Below are positions 19,906 to 62,297 of a stretch of 64,000 nucleotides of DNA, in pieces. Under the pieces are notes generated by a model. That model searched no databases. It worked only from the letters and a program-made list of their open reading frames with translations, and was not told where the DNA came from. The DNA is taken from assembly GCA_018061645.1 (NCBI GenBank), contig JAGOTT010000004.1:4784-68783 (forward strand), in the 5' to 3' direction. Position numbers and translations under genes: made by a program. Source of the DNA: Candidatus Moraniibacteriota bacterium. Its GTDB lineage: Bacteria > Patescibacteriota > Minisyncoccia > Moranbacterales > UBA1568. Each line of letters starts with the position of its first letter. The first letter of the stretch is position 1.

Positions 19906-19976
19906 TTGCAATACATTCCTTGGTACCACGAAATCGGACAAATGAAAAGGAGGTCGTTATTACGACCTCCATGCAG

Positions 19977-21362: not shown

Positions 21363-22217
21363 CTACCGTTCCGAAAAGACACACCGATTCTCATGCGCAA
21401 GACACCGGTACACGATATCCCCATCGATGTCGGTACGACGGACCGTCGCTCCGACGGCCGCGACACGGGAAAGCACGTCCGGCGACGGATGTCCATACTT
21501 GTTCTCCCCGACGGAAACAACTGCTTCCTCCGGACGGACACGGGATAGGAACAGGTCGCTCGAAGAATGCTTCGACCCGTGGTGCGCGAGCTTGAGTATT
21601 TCGGACGGCAGTGCTTCCGGGAGGAATAATTCTTCCCTCGGGAGATCTCCGGTCAGGAGGAAGTCCGTCTCACCGAAGGAGAACCGCGAGACGATACTTG
21701 TCTCATTGGACTCCCCCGCCACGTGTTCGCCGTCTTCCGGGAAAAGCGTCTCGAGACGCCCGCCTTTCGGAAGCGCGATCGAAAGACCGCGACGAGCGAC
21801 GATGCGTCCAGTATGCCCCTGTGACCCTTCAAGCGCACGCTCGAGAAGCGCGAACACCTCCGATTCCGATCGCACGGAGGTCGAGATATATGTGCCGACG
21901 CGATATCGTGAGAGAAGTTCCGGAAAACCACCGATGTGATCCGCATCCGGATGCGTGGCGACGACAGCCTCGATGGTCCGATCCCAGAACGGAATCTGCC
22001 GCGAGATTCCGGAAAGCAGTACCTTCCCGCTCCGCCCGCCGTCGATGAGGATCTGATTCCCTCCCTGCGAAATCAGGATCGCGTCCCCTTGTCCGACGTC
22101 GAGAAACACCACCTTCGTTTCCCTGGCATTCCTCCACGCGACATACGCAAATATTCCGCCGAGCAGAGCGGCGACAAGAAGTGAAACAAAAATGACCCGA
22201 AAGACCGCCTTTTTCAT
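21363..22217 (-). CDS. comEC: ComEC/Rec2 C-terminal metallo-beta-lactamase-domain protein (separate gene)
   Basis: TM start MKKAVFRVIFVSLLVAALL, then VVFLDVGQGDAILI...HPDADHIGG...LKLAHHGSKHSSS. The ATG at 22215-22217 overlaps the upstream stop as ATGA. Confidence 0.8.
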   Translation of the reverse strand: MKKAVFRVIFVSLLVAALLGGIFAYVAWRNARETKVVFLDVGQGDAILISQGGNQILIDGGRSGKVLLSGISRQIPFWDRTIEAVVATHPDADHIGGFPELLSRYRVGTYISTSVRSESEVFALLERALEGSQGHTGRIVARRGLSIALPKGGRLETLFPEDGEHVAGESNETSIVSRFSFGETDFLLTGDLPREELFLPEALPSEILKLAHHGSKHSSSDLFLSRVRPEEAVVSVGENKYGHPSPDVLSRVAAVGATVRRTDIDGDIVYRCLAHENRCVFSER

Positions 22218-23692
22218 ATCCTCATGATATCCGTATTCCGTTCCGGAAGAAACCCGCCTCTCCAGCGCGCGCGGATCATGATCGCCACAACAACACCGAG
22301 CACGCCATACCAGATGACCGCCTCCGTCCATCCGAAGTCCTGAAGTACTACATCCAACTCCTCGAAAGATGCCGCATACGCGGCGCCGGAGATTATGACA
22401 TGGAGCGACACATACGCCGGAAATCCGAAAACCGTGCCAAGCGTTCCGGATAGCATGCCGGCGACTCCGGCGAGAAACGAGAGGAGCATCGCTATCGGCA
22501 CAAGCGGAAGCAATATCGCGTTCGCGGGAAACGCGGCAAGGGAAAAATGTCCGAAGTTCGCGAAGATGATCGGCAGGATGAAGAGTTCGGCCGCGACCGT
22601 AAGCAGCAGCGCCTCGAGGAATATCTTCAGGAAAAACGGGATTCTTCGAAGGACACGACCAATCGGAGGTGACGCGAGGATGATTCCGGCGGTCGCTGCG
22701 AACGAAAGCAGGAATCCGAGATCGTGACGGATGATGAGCGGGTCGAAGGCGAGCATCACCGCCGCCGCGAAGAGGAGCGCATGGAACGATGCGTACCGTC
22801 GCCCGAAGAGCCATGCGAGGATAAGCGTCGACGCCATGCCGATCGCACGCACCGCGGACGGCGGCGCCCCCGAGACGAACACGAAGGCAAGCGTTCCGAA
22901 GAACGCGAAAATCGCCGCTTTCCGCCTCGGCAGAAAAAGCGCTATCCCGATAAGAAGCAGATACCCCGCGATGATGGAGATATTATACCCCGACACCGCC
23001 ACGACATGAGCGAGCCCTGCGGCACGGAAATCGTCCTTCGTTTCCGCCGGAAGGCGCCCGTCCCCGCCGAGCAGAAGCCCCGCCGCAAGACTCGACTCCG
23101 GCTCCGGCAACGCGCGCATAAGAGATTGTTCGAACCGGTCCGCGAATCGCATGAGCGCGATGGAAAGCGTACGATCCGTATCCCGCTTCTCCCACTCCGG
23201 TTTTTCACAGACAAAGCCGACGCCTCCCTTCGCGTGATACATCTGCCACTCTTCCTCCGGCAAGGAAAGCTCACAGAACAGCCTCCCCTTATCACCGAAG
23301 GAAACCGGCTCCGAAAGAGGGAAACGGACCAGAATCCTCTCTTCAGGACAAGACGTGCCTTCGCAGGATCGGAACGAGACTATCGCGTCCCGGGAAAAAT
23401 CCCTTGCCTCCGGGTTCCGGACGATTTCCACCTCACCGGACACCCGGCCGGTTTCCGGCAATCCGCGCCAATAGATCTCTTCTTCCCCCGCAATGAACCA
23501 TCCTGTCGAAAATGCAAATGCCAGAAAGAGAAAAATCGCCCCACGACGATCCGGCCATGCACCGAGCGCGGCGAAGCCAAGCGCGAACCCGAGGAGCGGA
23601 CCGACCGAGGAACCCCCATACGAAAACGTACCAAGCGCGATGCCCAGTACGAAAAGGATGAGAACGAGACGGAACACCGCGGAAACGGACAT
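22214..23692 (-). CDS. comEC: ComEC/Rec2 N-terminal competence (DUF4131 + Competence) membrane channel domain protein
   Basis: 492-aa polytopic protein with ...AGLAHVVAVSGYNISIIAG... Confidence 0.8.
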   Translation of the reverse strand: MSVSAVFRLVLILFVLGIALGTFSYGGSSVGPLLGFALGFAALGAWPDRRGAIFLFLAFAFSTGWFIAGEEEIYWRGLPETGRVSGEVEIVRNPEARDFSRDAIVSFRSCEGTSCPEERILVRFPLSEPVSFGDKGRLFCELSLPEEEWQMYHAKGGVGFVCEKPEWEKRDTDRTLSIALMRFADRFEQSLMRALPEPESSLAAGLLLGGDGRLPAETKDDFRAAGLAHVVAVSGYNISIIAGYLLLIGIALFLPRRKAAIFAFFGTLAFVFVSGAPPSAVRAIGMASTLILAWLFGRRYASFHALLFAAAVMLAFDPLIIRHDLGFLLSFAATAGIILASPPIGRVLRRIPFFLKIFLEALLLTVAAELFILPIIFANFGHFSLAAFPANAILLPLVPIAMLLSFLAGVAGMLSGTLGTVFGFPAYVSLHVIISGAAYAASFEELDVVLQDFGWTEAVIWYGVLGVVVAIMIRARWRGGFLPERNTDIMRI

Positions 23693-52094: not shown

Positions 52095-52841
52095 TTATTT
52101 GTTTCCTGTAACTACCGGTCCGGTCAACCCGGTAAACGGATCGATCTTGATTTCCGCTTCCGGAATGCCCATTCCGAGCAACAGCGCTTTCATCGCATCG
52201 GCGAACGCCGGCGCACCGATGACATAATAATGGCAATTCACGGTATCTGGCAAGTGCTTCCGGATCATATCGGCCGTGATGTACCCCCGTTCCTCGCAGG
52301 ACTCCGTCGCCGGATCCGTCGCGTCCGACAACGTCCAGACATAGTGGAAATCCGGAAGAAGCACGGATTTCAGATCGTCATGAAACGCCGCATCCTTCAG
52401 TTCGCGATTGGAATAGAAAAGGTAGTATCCGCGTCCGTCCGCGTTCCGCACGGCGTCGCGGATCATCGCCCGGACCGGGGCGATACCGACCCCGCCGGCG
52501 AGGAGTACGATGGCTTTCCCGTCGTTTTCCGGGATTGTGCAGTGTCCGACGGCTTTGGTGGAACCGATAGCGTCGCCCGGTTTGAGATCCCACATCGTTT
52601 TCTTGAACCCGGTGATGCCTTCACGCATCACGAAATGGAGTTCGTCCTCATACGGCGCGGATGCGATCGAAAACGACCGGATACCGCCCCGCTCATCAGG
52701 GCTCACGAGCCTCGAAGCCTCGATCCGAAGCGCGACATACTGCCCGGCTTGAAAGGTAAAATCGTCCGGTTTCGCGAAAATGAAAAGACGCGTCCCGTCG
52801 GCGACCTCCTCGAACCGTTTCAACGTAAGGATATATTCCAT
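52095..52841 (-). CDS. FNR-family FAD/NAD(P)-binding oxidoreductase
   Basis: RSFSIAS FAD motif and LLAGGVGIAP NAD(P) motif. Confidence 0.75.
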   Translation of the reverse strand: MEYILTLKRFEEVADGTRLFIFAKPDDFTFQAGQYVALRIEASRLVSPDERGGIRSFSIASAPYEDELHFVMREGITGFKKTMWDLKPGDAIGSTKAVGHCTIPENDGKAIVLLAGGVGIAPVRAMIRDAVRNADGRGYYLFYSNRELKDAAFHDDLKSVLLPDFHYVWTLSDATDPATESCEERGYITADMIRKHLPDTVNCHYYVIGAPAFADAMKALLLGMGIPEAEIKIDPFTGLTGPVVTGNK

Positions 52842-52857
52842 AATAAATCATTTATCT

Positions 52858-53059
52858 TGGTCGGGGTGCAGGGAATCGAACCCTGTCAACATTCCCTCCG
52901 GAACCGCGACAGCCCCCGGACTGTCGGACGATACCGCCGTCGGGGCACTCGGAATCGAACCGAGACTACCTGCTCCCAAAGCAGACGTACTGCCACTATA
53001 CTATGCCCCGACGCCGCTATCGTCCCCGCGCATGCGTACTACCGGTATACGACACCCCG
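52858..53059 (-). pseudogene. diverged tRNA-Pro(GGG)-like gene split in two, with the tRNA-Pro(TGG) gene between the halves
   Basis: 5' part (53059 down to 53011): CGGGGTG-TC-GTAT-ACCGGTA-GTAC-G-CATGC-GCGGGGA. 3' part (52939 down to 52858): ...CAGGG-TTCGATT-CCCTG-CACCCCG-A-CCA. The acceptor strands are complementary to each other. The arms GGACGATA/TATCGTCC bracket the inner tRNA. Confidence 0.5.
52940..53010 (-). tRNA. tRNA-Pro (anticodon TGG), no encoded CCA
   Basis: CGGGGCA/TGCCCCG acceptor, TCTGC-TTTGGGA-GCAGG anticodon arm, CTCGG-TTCGATT-CCGAG T-arm. Confidence 0.8.
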
Positions 53060-53200
53060 AAATAACATGACTCGGAATCCCTGCCCGCCTTTGGCGGGGA
53101 ACCGAGACTAAATCTCCTTCGGGACCACGACAGTCCCCCGGACTGTCGGATGATGATGCATCATCCCCAAACCACTTGTACTACCACTATACTATGCTCC
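53060..53200 (-). pseudogene. degenerate tRNA-Pro(TGG)-like 5' half followed by GC-rich hairpin insertions and a T-arm-like fragment
   Basis: CGGAGCA-TA-GTAT-AGTGGTA-GTAC-A-AGTGG-TTTGGGG, then ATGATGCATCAT, then CGACAGTCC-GGG-GGACTGTCG, then CTCGG-TTC[CCCGCCAAAGGCGGGCAGG]GATT-CCGAG. There is no matching acceptor 3' strand. Confidence 0.4.
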
Positions 53201-53315
53201 GAGGACCTATCCCAGTCTACCGATATCGGAGGAAAAAGCAATATCCCGCCACCATACGGGAAGCGGGATACGGCCCTATCTTTTTGTCTTGAGCGTCGCT
53301 CGAAACATCCGATAA

Positions 53316-53597
53316 TTATTTCACCGCTTCCTTGAGTGCCTTTCCTGCGGTGAACTTCGGAACGGTCATGGCCGGAATGGTGATCTTGGCCTTGGTCTGC
53401 GGATTGATGCCTTCACGGGCAGCGCGAGCGGACACGCGGAACGTTCCGAAGCCGGTGAGCGTCACTTTGTTGCCCTTGCGGAGCTCCGAAGTCACTTCAT
53501 CGACGAAAGATTCCACGACCGCCTCGACATCCTTCTTCGAAAGATCCGTCTTCGCCACGATCGCGTGGACGAGCGCATCCTTATTTACGTTTGTCAT
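53316..53597 (-). CDS. hup: DNA-binding protein HU
   Basis: ...LTGFGTFRVSARAAREGINPQTKAKITIPA... Confidence 0.9.
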   Translation of the reverse strand: MTNVNKDALVHAIVAKTDLSKKDVEAVVESFVDEVTSELRKGNKVTLTGFGTFRVSARAAREGINPQTKAKITIPAMTVPKFTAGKALKEAVK

Positions 53598-61691: not shown

Positions 61692-62297
61692 TCAGGATTC
61701 GATTCCAAAACGATCCTTCAACTCCCGATCATTCTCTATAGAATCTGCCACGATATACAGCACGTCACGGCCGACATGGAATTCAGTTTTGAGCAGTGAA
61801 ACAAGCTCCTCCGACTCGTACGGCGATACCCAGACGCTGTCTTGCAACCGGATGAACCCGAAACTCGCGATCTCATCGCGCCAACGATCACGTGCATATC
61901 GGCGGGTTTCCTGTATATCAAATATGACTAACCGCCACTTGCCGTCCCATCGTTTTTTCTTGAGAGCATTTTCCTTCAGACGATATTTGAGAAGCTGCCT
62001 CTCCCCTGCTTCCGTCAATCGGTAAAATATCTTCCCATTCTCATGAACCGTTTCCACAAACCCCTTCTTTTTGAGCCGTCCGATAGCGGTTTTTGCATAG
62101 CTCCGATATCCGCGTTCTTCGTCTTTCGTCATTACATACAGCTTACCGATCGCTCCGATGACATTCGGCGCCACCAAAGCAGACGCAAGTAATCCGGCTC
62201 CAGCGACACCGAAAAGCAGCATCTTCTGTATTTCAAGACGTCTTTCTTTCTTTTCCGAAAGCGAATCAGCTTCGGCAAACTCCATATTCTCTTCCAT
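61692..62297 (-). CDS. PaaX-C-like domain protein with an N-terminal TM segment (putative regulator)
   Basis: ...WDGKWRLVIFDIQETRRYARDRWRDEIASFGFIRLQDSVWVSPY. GC is about 50%, against about 60% in the neighbouring genes. Confidence 0.45.
   Translation of the reverse strand: MEENMEFAEADSLSEKKERRLEIQKMLLFGVAGAGLLASALVAPNVIGAIGKLYVMTKDEERGYRSYAKTAIGRLKKKGFVETVHENGKIFYRLTEAGERQLLKYRLKENALKKKRWDGKWRLVIFDIQETRRYARDRWRDEIASFGFIRLQDSVWVSPYESEELVSLLKTEFHVGRDVLYIVADSIENDRELKDRFGIES

Follow-up and report, generated by a model that had tools for sequence, protein, structure and literature searches.

In archaeal split tRNAs, a 12-14-nt complementary leader/trailer helix brings the two halves together. 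The twintrons of Euglena plastids arise by nesting, when an insert recreates its own target, and their RNA is spliced one step at a time. Rickettsia palindromic elements, mitochondrial GC clusters and REP/RAYT are dispersed in many copies. Integrases reportedly prefer particular sublocations within tRNA genes. Islands integrate into tRNA genes, split them, restore them with a copy of their own and leave a displaced fragment (PMC4383910). Group I introns are known in the anticodon loops of Patescibacteria tRNAs, and none was found at the 37/38 position of that loop in 4,934 genomes (PMC13011429).

Here we analyze a tRNA-Pro locus of a member of the Moranbacteria (candidate phyla radiation). It lies on the minus strand of a 64-kb stretch of DNA, called the window. 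Its nested arrangement recurs in related genomes and suggests an undescribed small DNA cassette that overwrites the tRNA-Pro gene. We found in the literature no description of nested tRNA genes or of the HA/HB hairpin module presented below.

Three tRNA-Pro-derived units at one locus

Read on the minus strand, the segment 53201-52858 contains three tRNA-Pro-derived units: an upstream copy (tRNA#1), an outer tRNA broken into two halves and an inner tRNA that sits in the anticodon loop of the outer one, with conserved hairpins. A preliminary description had reported such a tRNA nested in a tRNA at 52858-53200. All its elements were confirmed on the minus strand and are present in this range, except that the third copy begins at 53201, one base outside. 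In the direction of reading the features are:

53233-53270, minus: hairpin plus T run, the terminator of HU, the gene upstream (terminator scan)
53166-53201, minus: 5' part of tRNA#1, i.e. acceptor CGGAGCA, D arm, AGTGG (5' strand of the anticodon stem) and loop TTTGGG (repeat family D1)
53114-53166, minus: closed three-hairpin module in tRNA#1 (folds; covariance model R1)
53166-53148, minus: H1 of tRNA#1, GGATGATG-CAT-CATCATCC
53148-53128, minus: HA of tRNA#1, CGACAGTCC-GGG-GGACTGTCG, then TGG
53124-53114, minus: HB of tRNA#1, TCCC-GAA-GGAG
53070-53113, minus: 3' part of tRNA#1, i.e. ATT TAGT, CTCGG T stem, TTC, hairpin insert, GATT, CCGAG, T (sequence)
53098-53080, minus: 19-nt hairpin insert in the T loop of tRNA#1, CCCGCCAAAGGCGGGCAGG
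53060-53069, minus: spacer CATGTTATTT between tRNA#1 and the outer tRNA (sequence)
53024-53059, minus: 5' half of the outer tRNA, CGGGGTG TC GTAT-ACCGGTA-GTAC G CATGC GCGGGG (match to the tRNA of L013)
53011-53025, minus: left strand of helix H1, leader of the inner tRNA, GGA plus 12 nt, GGACGATAGCGGCGT (fold; inverted repeat I1)
52940-53010, minus: inner intact tRNA-Pro(UGG) (ARAGORN; Rfam tRNA, 63.8 bits)
52926-52939, minus: right strand of helix H1, 14-nt trailer, CGGCGGTATCGTCC (fold; inverted repeat I1)
52893-52926, minus: HA CGACAGTCC-GGG-GGCTGTCG (52926-52907), CGG, HB TTCC-GGA-GGGA (52903-52893) (folds; R1; covariation)
52858-52892, minus: 3' half of the outer tRNA, ATG (positions 41-43) TTGA CAGGG-TTCGATT-CCCTG CACCCCG A, then CCA (match to the tRNA of L013)

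The inner unit is indeed the intact tRNA-Pro(TGG) claimed earlier: ARAGORN calls it at 53010-52940 and RF00005 matches it over positions 1-71 of 71. Its cloverleaf has a 7-nt anticodon loop and is that of a canonical bacterial tRNA-Pro by both Rfam and ARAGORN. C1-G72, A73, G35, G36 and G37, read from the sequence and the cloverleaf, are all present; we take G35, G36, A73 and C1-G72 (plus G37) to be the ProRS identity elements. Of the three units of the locus, ARAGORN and Rfam recognize this one alone, whether intron mode is on or off, and it is the only functional-looking tRNA gene. The inverted arms that bracket it, given before as about 14 bp, are GGACGATAGCGGCGT and (A)CGGCGGTATCGTCC. They form 13 Watson-Crick pairs out of 15, and for H1 the count is 10-14 pairs out of 15, compared with an average of 5.6 for random 15-mers. 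This 15-bp helix stacks on the acceptor stem of the inner tRNA. In every instance, relatives included, the leader is the 12 nt after GGGGA and the trailer is 14 nt long.

The acceptor strands of the outer halves, described as perfectly complementary, pair at 7 of 7 positions, and the D and T arms are perfect. The halves had been likened to the tRNA-Pro(GGG) of the window. This likeness is weaker (25/30 and 22/32 nt), the best match being the intact tRNA-Pro(TGG) of a related locus, L013, which is identical to the 5' half at 30/30 nt, up to the anticodon loop, and to the 3' half at 31/32 nt. With 61/62 nt shared over both halves, L013 and the window thus represent an empty site and a filled site. 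The outer loop of the window reads GCGGGGA, with a C where the universal U33 is expected. No tRNA finder called the outer tRNA, intron mode included (ARAGORN, 0-300 nt, lowered thresholds).

tRNA#1 had been presented as a third Pro(TGG)-like 5' half interrupted by hairpins. The interruption by hairpins is real, but the unit is a nearly complete copy, with the module inserted after G37, rather than a half. Its 5' part is 84% identical to the inner tRNA and, by eye, matches the intact tRNA of L014 at 34/36 nt; the three 5' halves make up one repeat family (D1). The T stem is intact and the 3' acceptor strand is missing. The T-loop insert is identical in L013, with variants in L015 and L042; when sought as a dispersed repeat, its hairpin pattern turned up at no other site. 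The spacer CATGTTATTT resembles the end of a longer conserved spacer (...GTTTTATTTAT) in clade B loci. Both the outer unit and tRNA#1 have the properties of tRNA fragments or pseudogenes, i.e. they fail ARAGORN and Rfam, and the homologous outer halves are decayed in relatives.

The gene order at the locus is HU, tRNA-Pro, FNR-like, tRNA-Gly. A conserved TTGCTT overlaps the T run of the HU terminator and TAGACT follows about 16 nt later (about 53219-53214); these are likely the promoter of the tRNA array. The motif GTAGACTGG upstream of the array is conserved in nearly all related loci, and the terminator scan found no terminator between the array and the FNR-like gene. Pfam searches on about 50 ORFs of the window returned housekeeping genes only, and the host has the bacterial genes RNase Y, HU, SecY and bacterial ribosomal proteins. 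A ComEC competence gene is also present in the 64-kb window; we counted it for the cassette reading discussed below.

The hairpin module and its junctions

The hairpin at 53148-53128 recurs at 52926-52907, as had been noticed, with a one-base deletion, because of which a 3-mismatch search missed it. The covariance model R1 scores 66.8 bits at 53155-53107 (E about 5e-20) and 57.4 bits at 52933-52886 (E about 8e-17). With filters off it finds nothing comparable elsewhere in the 64 kb, and over 123 kb of related loci it finds only tRNA-Pro-locus copies. We considered a dispersed palindromic repeat (REP, RPE, MITE-like) and rejected it, the module being restricted to the tRNA-Pro locus in both sequence sets. 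The recurrence of the hairpins and of the 5' halves is far beyond chance.

The module consists of GGGGA, the 12-nt leader, the tRNA and the 14-nt trailer (forming the 15-bp helix), then two covarying hairpins. The insert measures 58 nt when closed and about 143 nt with the tRNA; in the window the fragments are separated from the inner tRNA by 15 and 48 nt. Twelve instances, drawn from 8 distinct loci, share one set of junctions: ...TTTGGG-GA, 12 nt, tRNA, 14 nt ending RTCC, HA, YSG, HB, A. To the right of HB and this A, the anticodon stem contributes its last two nucleotides before the variable loop begins. All 12 instances lack three nucleotides from the 3' strand of this stem (positions 38-40 or 39-41). 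GGGGA (5 nt) is found at both junctions; the remaining putative cores differ.

In HA and HB, 94.9% of the cells are paired over the 12 instances, compared with 86% in shuffles, and 0 of 500 shuffles reach 94.9%. Both sides have changed in 6 of the 13 HA/HB pairs. Judged from these alignments, HA and HB are real helices. Counts intended to distinguish RNA- from DNA-level structure gave 5 G-U versus 2 A-C mismatches in HA and 3 versus 4 in HB. A long-range helix between CUUUGGG (anticodon loop) and CCCGAAG (HB) appears in some folds only and is not kept across instances.

The locus in related genomes

A single ordinary tRNA at the locus in relatives had been named as the sign of a misread cloverleaf. 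L001 and L004 do carry a single ordinary tRNA, but the cloverleaf reading holds and the locus is polymorphic for presence or absence of the nest. One strain, whose HU is identical and whose FNR-like protein is 96% identical, carries just one tRNA, preceded by what is left of the left junction, GCGCGGGGCATCCGGCAGTAT. Other Moranbacteria have, at the same position, one to two nesting levels plus outside remnants, always with the same module. Synteny is traceable only among closer relatives, as FNR-like homologues at 50% identity or less lie in a different gene context.

In each of 8 related loci, exactly one tRNA-Pro passes the tRNA models. The outer halves are truncated or degenerate in L018, L013, L020, L025 and L050; the innermost tRNA has stayed whole in every case. 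In L009 the outer layers have acceptor strands that do not pair in nested order. In L018 the outer tRNA is almost gone and the module around the working tRNA is intact, a pattern which hints that the module may be kept for a function in cis, not for mobility. The general layout is (5' half + leader)n - tRNA - (trailer + hairpins + 3' half)m, and in L044 and L050 n differs from m. In L044, the tRNA-Gly has a direct repeat of its own 3' end, as at an att site.

Module types cut across the host phylogeny. The modules of L013 and L025 are 100% identical over 41 alignment columns with an FNR identity of 58%, and those of L020_a and L044_b are 90% identical with an FNR identity of 56%. Module copies within one locus are only 61-85% alike, i.e. 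less than copies in distant hosts, which favors several arrivals with horizontal exchange over local duplication.

Origin of the nested arrangement

The best explanation, to which we give an even chance, is that a replacement tRNA-Pro cassette bounded by hairpins inserted serially and site-specifically, and that recombination and decay came afterwards. The locus would then be one working tRNA-Pro(UGG) gene amid the wreckage of earlier tRNA-Pro(UGG) genes. A resident "gamma" allele, still intact in L013, would have been split right after G37 by about 143 bp of DNA bringing its own complete tRNA-Pro(UGG). The loss of three anticodon-stem nucleotides on insertion would leave the host copy dead, and the cargo tRNA would take over. 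Nesting would be possible because the cargo recreates the target site, allowing insertion to be repeated. tRNA#1 may be an older victim, whose cargo tRNA was later deleted to give the closed module and which gained the T-loop hairpin as well. Homologous recombination or deletion among the tRNA-Pro repeats could then shuffle, shrink or resolve a nest; in the close strain the cargo tRNA alone would remain.

We thus infer an active, site-specific and structure-dependent DNA insertion at the anticodon-loop region, spread by gene transfer and recombination. Two of the origins proposed in the preliminary description survive in part. A scar of repeated site-specific insertion or recombination and a hairpin element targeting tRNA genes are both compatible with the recurrence of the same junctions and module at this locus and with the presence of module types in distant hosts. 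The first does not hold in the form of a classical integrase scar, since there is no integrase or cargo and a whole tRNA is carried, nor the second as a dispersed repeat, only one locus being concerned.

Neither the window ORFs scanned (about 50, Pfam) nor the surroundings of the related loci yielded a recombinase, transposase or homing endonuclease. A Y1 (IS200/IS605-type) transposase gene flanks the locus in one sister contig; this candidate mobilizing enzyme was dropped, as none occurs near the other nested loci. The module and the tRNA 5' half, the latter both with the junction and without it, were sought in three scans of viral contigs, and two chance matches in coding sequence were the only result. 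Against the cassette, besides these negative searches and the patterns of L009 and L018, the module is at one site per genome as far as seen, and no transposition to a second site was caught. No chemistry known for conservative recombinases or transposases fits the constant loss of three nucleotides at the right junction; alternatively, all junctions could descend from one ancient event and have been spread by recombination and gene conversion. We propose more tentatively, at somewhat less than even chances, that the cassette belongs to an undescribed class of elements in Moranbacteria (perhaps in other Patescibacteria). Such an element would be a structured tRNA-Pro(UGG) cassette of ~140 bp, acting as a selfish tRNA allele replacement, self-nesting and passing between lineages. 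Its mobilization would depend on an unlinked enzyme recognizing the hairpins, or else on a mechanism at the RNA level that would be new in bacteria.

A scenario devoid of any mobile cassette, which we consider unlikely, is that one ancient event set the module and H1 around tRNA-Pro(UGG). They would have been kept for a role in the transcript, the halves being by-products of unequal crossing-over or gene conversion. For example, the 22-bp leader-trailer-acceptor helix could be an RNase III-type release site, and HA and HB end-protecting hairpins. The constant leader and trailer lengths, the covariation of H1, HA and HB, the sense-strand G-U pairs of HA (5 G-U versus 2 A-C) and the continuity from the array to the FNR-like gene without terminator are consistent with a role in the transcript. 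So is L018, with its module intact around a working tRNA despite outer decay. The identical three-nucleotide deficit at every right junction would fit a single event, and the imbalance between n and m in L044 and L050 is expected from unequal exchange. However, many relatives, some of them close (L001, L035, L014, L016, L011 and L038 are module-free), express the tRNA from the same promoter region without the module, and in L050 and L052 H1 is broken with the tRNA intact. In HB, A-C mismatches are at least as many as G-U. Finally, the divergence of modules within a locus exceeds that across clades, the opposite of what local duplication predicts.

We consider improbable that the fragments are att-site scars of ordinary integrative elements (tyrosine-integrase prophages or islands) at the anticodon and T loops of tRNA-Pro, whose bodies were lost. 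The disruptions do lie exactly in the anticodon loop and the T loop, with GGGGA at both junctions, and the att-like 3' repeat of the L044 tRNA-Gly and the Y1 transposase gene of the sister contig point the same way. Islands that split a tRNA gene, restore it with their own copy and leave a displaced fragment provide a precedent (PMC4383910). But neither integrase nor cargo is found between the fragments and the inserted DNA is only 58-143 bp. Moreover, classical integration gives one displaced 3' fragment, not matched halves around a whole tRNA, and conservative recombination would not delete three nucleotides. The overlap regions also differ, the putative attB being TTTGGGA and attP GNAGGGGA, and the module and tRNA are absent from viral contigs.

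That the outer gene is a true intron-containing or split tRNA, another origin suggested earlier, is very improbable. The inner tRNA would be freed by RNase P and RNase Z, and the halves, held by H1 and the acceptor stem, would be ligated. The perfect acceptor stem, D arm and T arm and the encoded CCA would suit such a gene, and the 12-14-nt complementary leader/trailer is like the joining helices of Nanoarchaeum. Patescibacteria are, in addition, rich in tRNA introns (PMC13011429). However, positions 38-40 or 39-41 are missing everywhere: removal of the insert cannot rebuild a 5-bp anticodon stem, whatever the excision, which speaks against an intron or a split tRNA. In addition, ARAGORN in intron mode (up to 300 nt) finds the inner tRNA alone, a C occupies the U33 position of the outer loop GCGGGGA, about 40 nt (HA + HB) lie between H1 and the 3' exon, and the outer copies of relatives are truncated or carry T-loop inserts. 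The statement that no BHB could be drawn is correct: the folds give a continuous 15-bp helix, then two hairpins, and 3-nt bulges set 4 bp apart do not occur in them. A group I core is missing too, Intron_gpI having no match at E up to 10 in 52700-53400, and the group I introns of bacterial tRNAs occur at every anticodon-loop position except 37/38 (PMC13011429). Rfam searches of the locus (E up to 10) and of 8 related loci (gathering score) turned up neither a ribozyme nor an intron nor any other family. When all joins of 5' and 3' end points from four nests were submitted to ARAGORN, a too permissive assay, calls were scattered over many anticodons with no consistent junction. The scanned ORFs of the window, which covers 64 kb of the genome, contain no domain of an EndA-family splicing endonuclease.

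Lastly, a chimeric assembly path through tRNA-Pro strain variants in a metagenome graph has a negligible probability. The locus is indeed hard to assemble: the contigs L004, L005 and L006 break off in or at a tRNA copy, and the T-loop insert of L026 contains an N gap. But the window shares a 500-nt region, base for base, with L002 and L003, two assemblies made independently from other samples, which argues against an artefact. H1, HA and HB are unique DNA not obtainable from mixed plain alleles, and analogous nests of differing sequence occur in more than 10 unrelated assemblies.

Implications

If the cassette reading is true, this would be the smallest known tRNA-gene-targeting element that repairs its damage with its own complete tRNA, and a clear bacterial case of a tRNA gene nested in a tRNA gene. 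It would also provide a mechanism for rapid tRNA allele turnover in ultra-small genomes, where most tRNAs are single-copy; different tRNA-Pro alleles are found in strains with identical neighboring proteins. A type of intervening sequence other than group I would be added to the unusual intron biology of Patescibacteria. If the fragments are only decaying debris, the locus is still a recombination hot spot with a conserved covarying RNA/DNA structure beside an essential gene. Because tRNA finders report the inner gene only and assemblers break at the locus, nests are invisible in current annotations, and the tRNA complements of the genomes that contain them may be mis-counted.

Comparison with known systems

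As islands and prophages at tRNA genes do (PMC4383910), the proposed Moranbacteria insert would target a loop of a specific tRNA gene, split the gene and restore function with an incoming tRNA sequence, displaced tRNA fragments and strain polymorphism being left behind. It differs in its size of 58-143 bp, without integrase or cargo, and in bringing a whole tRNA, not a 3' segment. It also leaves both halves, costs the target three nucleotides, nests within itself and has a structure of three covarying hairpins at its borders.

Group I tRNA introns share with it the phylum, the kind of gene and the anticodon loop, and are also missed by standard tRNA finders. In contrast, the Moranbacteria insert is much too short for such an intron, sits at or after position 37, has no core and has exons that cannot be rejoined.

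The disrupted tRNAs of archaea (BHB introns, multiple introns, split or permuted genes; Nanoarchaeum, Caldivirga, Thermoproteales) are likewise interrupted near 37/38 and have a comparable leader/trailer helix, and the outer halves of the Moranbacteria locus have perfect acceptor complementarity. Here, however, the host is bacterial, there is no BHB, HA and HB stand between the helix and the 3' half, the anticodon stem is not restorable and the outer copies decay in relatives.

Small palindromic elements (Rickettsia palindromic elements, mitochondrial GC clusters, double-hairpin elements, REP/RAYT) are also short GC-rich hairpin DNA in the loops of structured-RNA genes, with compensatory changes that keep the hairpins. 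In contrast to them, the module and the T-loop hairpins are found only in tRNA-Pro copies at one locus, and no Y1 or RAYT gene was found among the ORFs scanned in the 64-kb window.

With twintrons the locus shares its nested architecture; it differs from them in showing no sign of splicing, and the unit that is nested here is a gene.

Anatomy of the array

Three tRNA-Pro-derived units, all in the same orientation, lie between the terminator of the HU gene and an FNR-like gene, among bacterial housekeeping genes (RNase Y, HU, ribosomal proteins, SecY, RpoB/C, FtsZ/A, ComEC). The genome belongs to Candidatus Moranbacteria, within the candidate phyla radiation; the FNR-like protein flanking the array is 100% identical to a protein assigned to Moranbacteria. 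From upstream to downstream the features are:

53270-53233, minus strand: HU gene terminator (terminator scan), upstream border
53201-53070, minus strand: unit 1 (tRNA#1), with acceptor 5' strand, D arm and anticodon-stem 5' strand, then TTTGGG
Directly after TTTGGG, minus strand: 53-nt module of tRNA#1, made of the three hairpins H1 (GGATGATG-CAT-CATCATCC), HA (CGACAGTCC-GGG-GGACTGTCG) and HB (TCCC-GAA-GGAG)
After this module, minus strand: 3' part of tRNA#1, ATT TAGT then the T arm, its T loop split by a 19-nt hairpin at 53098-53080
53059-53024 and 52892-52861, minus strand: unit 2, 5' and 3' halves of the outer tRNA
53025-53011 and 52939-52926, minus strand: left and right strands of H1, here a leader/trailer helix, bracketing the inner tRNA
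53010-52940, minus strand: unit 3, intact inner tRNA-Pro(UGG), between the two outer halves
52926-52907 and 52903-52893, minus strand: HA and HB, after the right strand of H1
ATG at 52841, minus strand: FNR-like gene, downstream border

The 3' acceptor strand of tRNA#1 is absent. In the fold of the nest (RNAfold, z = -3.6) a long helix, closed by the acceptor stem of the outer tRNA, bears the inner cloverleaf; HA, HB and the T arm come after it.

The preliminary description had placed an intact tRNA-Pro(UGG) within a split tRNA, and this holds: ARAGORN and the Rfam tRNA model each call only the inner gene at the locus, and the outer tRNA has canonical D and T arms and an acceptor stem paired at 7/7 positions. 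The resemblance then proposed between the outer halves and tRNA-Pro(GGG) gives way to a better one. They agree with the tRNA-Pro(GGG) of the window at only 25/30 and 22/32 positions, against 30/30 and 31/32 for the intact tRNA-Pro(UGG) of the related locus L013 (84% identity of the FNR-like protein, hereafter FNR identity). The outer unit is therefore a tRNA-Pro(UGG) allele, called gamma, the inner type being alpha. The empty site is that of L013 (...CATGC TTTGGGA GCATG TTGA...) and the filled site that of the window (...CATGC GCGGGGA [insert] ATG TTGA...).

All three 5' halves belong to a single repeat family. R1, a covariance model built from 12 instances of the HA/HB module, scores 66.8 and 57.4 bits at the two module sites of the window, with no other comparable match in the 64 kb. 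tRNA#1 and the outer pieces are far from chance, despite the lack of a tRNA-finder call.

CCA is encoded at 52858-52860, directly after the dead outer tRNA, and neither at the intact inner tRNA-Pro(UGG) nor at tRNA-Pro(GGG); the intact gamma orthologues of L013, L015 and L042 carry CAA at this position.

Constant junctions and conserved structure of the module

The junctions are constant in 12/12 module instances from 8 distinct loci. On the left, the anticodon loop (...TTTGGG-GA) is followed by a leader of exactly 12 nt and the tRNA; then come the trailer, always 14 nt long with RTCC at its end, HA (GAC...GTC), G-YSG and HB (YYCC-GNA-GGRR). On the right, an A and the last two anticodon-stem nucleotides precede the variable loop, the 3' strand of this stem being always three nucleotides short.

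The module is a conserved structure. Over HA and HB 94.9% of cells pair, versus 86% in column shuffles (0/500 reach 94.9%), 6/13 pairs are changed on both sides, and sliding the partner by 1-3 columns lowers pairing to 37-55%. H1 has 10-14/15 positions paired per instance, where random 15-mers average 5.6. Hairpins are likewise formed by the T-loop inserts, whose variation is compensatory. Counts of G-U and A-C do not discriminate RNA-level from DNA-level structure, and no ribozyme, group I intron or other Rfam family matches the module.

Nests in related loci

The order HU, tRNA-Pro(UGG), FNR-like, tRNA-Gly(UCC) is kept in the recovered related loci. Comparison across relatives, proposed in the preliminary description, finds the same nest architecture in many and a single plain tRNA in others:

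Plain loci, no nest: L011, L014, L016, L035, L038
One nesting level: L023, L018
Two nesting levels, on both sides: L009, L020
One full level and an outer 3' remnant: L044

Several loci of clade B (a host group, as are clades A and C below) have an upstream tRNA copy whose T loop holds two GC hairpins. The Rfam model passes exactly one tRNA-Pro per locus (eight of the related loci), and the outer halves are decayed or truncated in L013, L018, L020, L025 and L050, as expected of dead copies.

Close strains are polymorphic. L001 and L004 (HU protein identical to that of the window, FNR-like protein 96% identical) have one plain alpha-type tRNA-Pro(UGG) without nest, preceded by a left-junction relic (GCGCGGGGCATCCGGCAGTAT; window counterpart GCGCGGGGACGATAGCGGCGT) and followed directly by the flank found after the gamma gene in L013. 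Such a layout suggests that deletions resolved a nest here, the cargo tRNA ending up in place of the resident gene. In L050-L054 (83% FNR identity) the gamma 5' half is gone, while alpha, trailer, HA, HB and the 3' half of gamma persist. The contigs of L005 and L006 stop inside tRNA#1 with TTTGGGA unbroken; therefore the module in tRNA#1 also appears polymorphic between strains.

Other variants were seen at these loci. L051 and L053 (positions 1-90), with identical FNR-like proteins and the same downstream module, differ in their tRNA-Pro(UGG) anticodon arms (GTCTGC TTTGGGA GCAGG vs GAGTGG TTTGGGA CCATT); segments of the tRNA pass from one very close strain to another. The sole intact tRNA-Pro(UGG) of L020 (2178-2249) and L023 (2250-2321) has the T loop TCCGATT, with C in place of the universal U55; either this is tolerated or a further tRNA-Pro(UGG) copy lies elsewhere in the genome. 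In L042 (1034-1160) and L043 an intact gamma-type tRNA-Pro is followed by an alpha-type 3' part with T-loop hairpin, whose acceptor strand CGCTCCG would pair with the 5' acceptor strand CGGAGCA of the window's tRNA#1 except at the last base, then by a decayed trailer, an HA/HB remnant and a gamma 3' half. These pieces of the window in another order indicate rearrangement by recombination between repeats.

In L008, L010, L012, L021, L022, L024, L025 and L046 a conserved spacer of ~65 nt separates the upstream T-loop-insert copy from the intact tRNA-Pro. It contains small covarying hairpins (GGCGAAAGTTTCGCC / GGCGCTCGTTGCGCC), a palindrome (TCACGTGA) and TTTTATTTAT, which abuts the tRNA 5' end, and could be a candidate second promoter or protein-binding site. 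The window retains only its ...GTTATTT (53066-53060).

L026 has an N run exactly at the T-loop insert (~1215-1311), and the contigs of L004, L005 and L006 end in or at tRNA-Pro copies; assemblies break here, and such nests are likely under-reported in metagenome-assembled genomes. In L038 (278-1183) an ORF of 301 aa, with no Pfam family, has come in between the plain tRNA-Pro(UGG) and the FNR-like gene, a further sign that the spot takes foreign DNA. In L044 (2107-2468) two repeats of the T-arm/acceptor 3' end of tRNA-Gly(UCC) (GATTCCCATCACCCGCTC) lie behind this gene, the first inverted and the second direct. A longer sister contig (protein P0028) carries, in the same downstream region as tRNA-Gly and ~550 nt downstream of the FNR-like gene, a 136-aa Y1_Tnp (IS200/IS605-type) gene; together these look like a separate insertion at tRNA-Gly.

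One site in many hosts

R1 matches are confined to the tRNA-Pro locus (window and 123 kb of related loci). Module types do not follow the host tree: L013 (clade A) and L025 (clade B), at 58% FNR identity, have modules 100% identical over 41 alignment columns, and those of L020 (copy a, clade B) and L044 (copy b, clade C), at 56%, are 90% identical. Copies that share a locus are just 61-85% identical, the opposite of what local tandem duplication predicts. This pattern indicates horizontal exchange of the module and several independent arrivals.

A weak R1 match (11.4 bits; E 0.35 over the whole window, 0.004 over the local 700 nt) lies at 19910-19943 (minus strand; ATTTGTCCGA..TCGTGG TACC AAGG AATGTA), directly upstream of tRNA-Pro(GGG) (19905-19835). 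It looks like a relic of a trailer-HA-HB arm with HA collapsed; given its place beside the other proline tRNA gene, this could be either a coincidence or an old vestige of the element.

Origin of the nests

The reading that we prefer, and to which we give about an even chance, is site-specific cassette insertion with functional replacement, nesting and later recombination. A cassette of leader, tRNA-Pro(UGG), trailer, HA and HB would enter the resident tRNA-Pro(UGG) gene just after G37 and inactivate it, the cargo tRNA acting as substitute. Because the cargo recreates the target site, repeated insertion into it would give nests, which recombination among the many tRNA repeats would later delete, shuffle or resolve. 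The anatomy, the constant junctions, the covarying hairpins, the empty and filled alleles, the decay of outer copies and the sharing between clades are shown by the sequences. We infer that the cassette enters DNA actively and in a structure-dependent way and that gene transfer spreads it; a gene of the ComEC competence channel, relevant to DNA uptake, lies at 22214-23692 (minus strand).

The ORFs scanned in the window and the surroundings of the related loci yielded no recombinase, transposase or homing endonuclease, nor was the module found in viral contigs. The Y1 transposase on one sister contig was rejected as mobilising enzyme, not being recurrent at other loci. At 61692-62297 (minus strand) the window encodes a protein of 201 aa that has a PaaX central Cas2-like domain.

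A single ancient insertion, after which unequal crossing-over and gene conversion reshaped the locus and the module persisted because it serves the transcript (for example as an RNase III-type release stem with end-protecting hairpins), would account for the identical 3-nt deficit everywhere and for the module intact around a working tRNA in L018. We hold it unlikely, since many relatives are module-free and module identities within loci and between hosts run against it. Scars of a classical integrase are more doubtful still: no element body was found, the cargo is a whole tRNA and target bases are lost. A true intron or split tRNA, as the preliminary description had envisaged, is very improbable: three anticodon-stem nucleotides are gone in every instance, therefore no excision rebuilds a tRNA, and ARAGORN in intron mode found no interrupted tRNA. 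An assembly artefact is excluded: L002 and L003, assembled independently from different samples, are base-identical to the window over the whole 500-nt region.

Comparison with known systems

We file the element as a tRNA-gene-targeting insertion with functional replacement, and there is a real chance that it forms a new class. Our literature search found no paper on a tRNA gene nested in a tRNA gene, nor on the three-hairpin module. Archaeal split tRNAs have a 12-14-nt joining helix; the nest has this in common with them, but not the remainder. In Patescibacteria tRNAs group I introns are common, with none found at 37/38 (PMC13011429, section 8); the insert described here has no ribozyme core. 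PMC4383910 describes islands whose integration into a tRNA gene also regenerates that gene: compared with that account, the logic of the cassette is similar, but it is a miniature and its anatomy is different.
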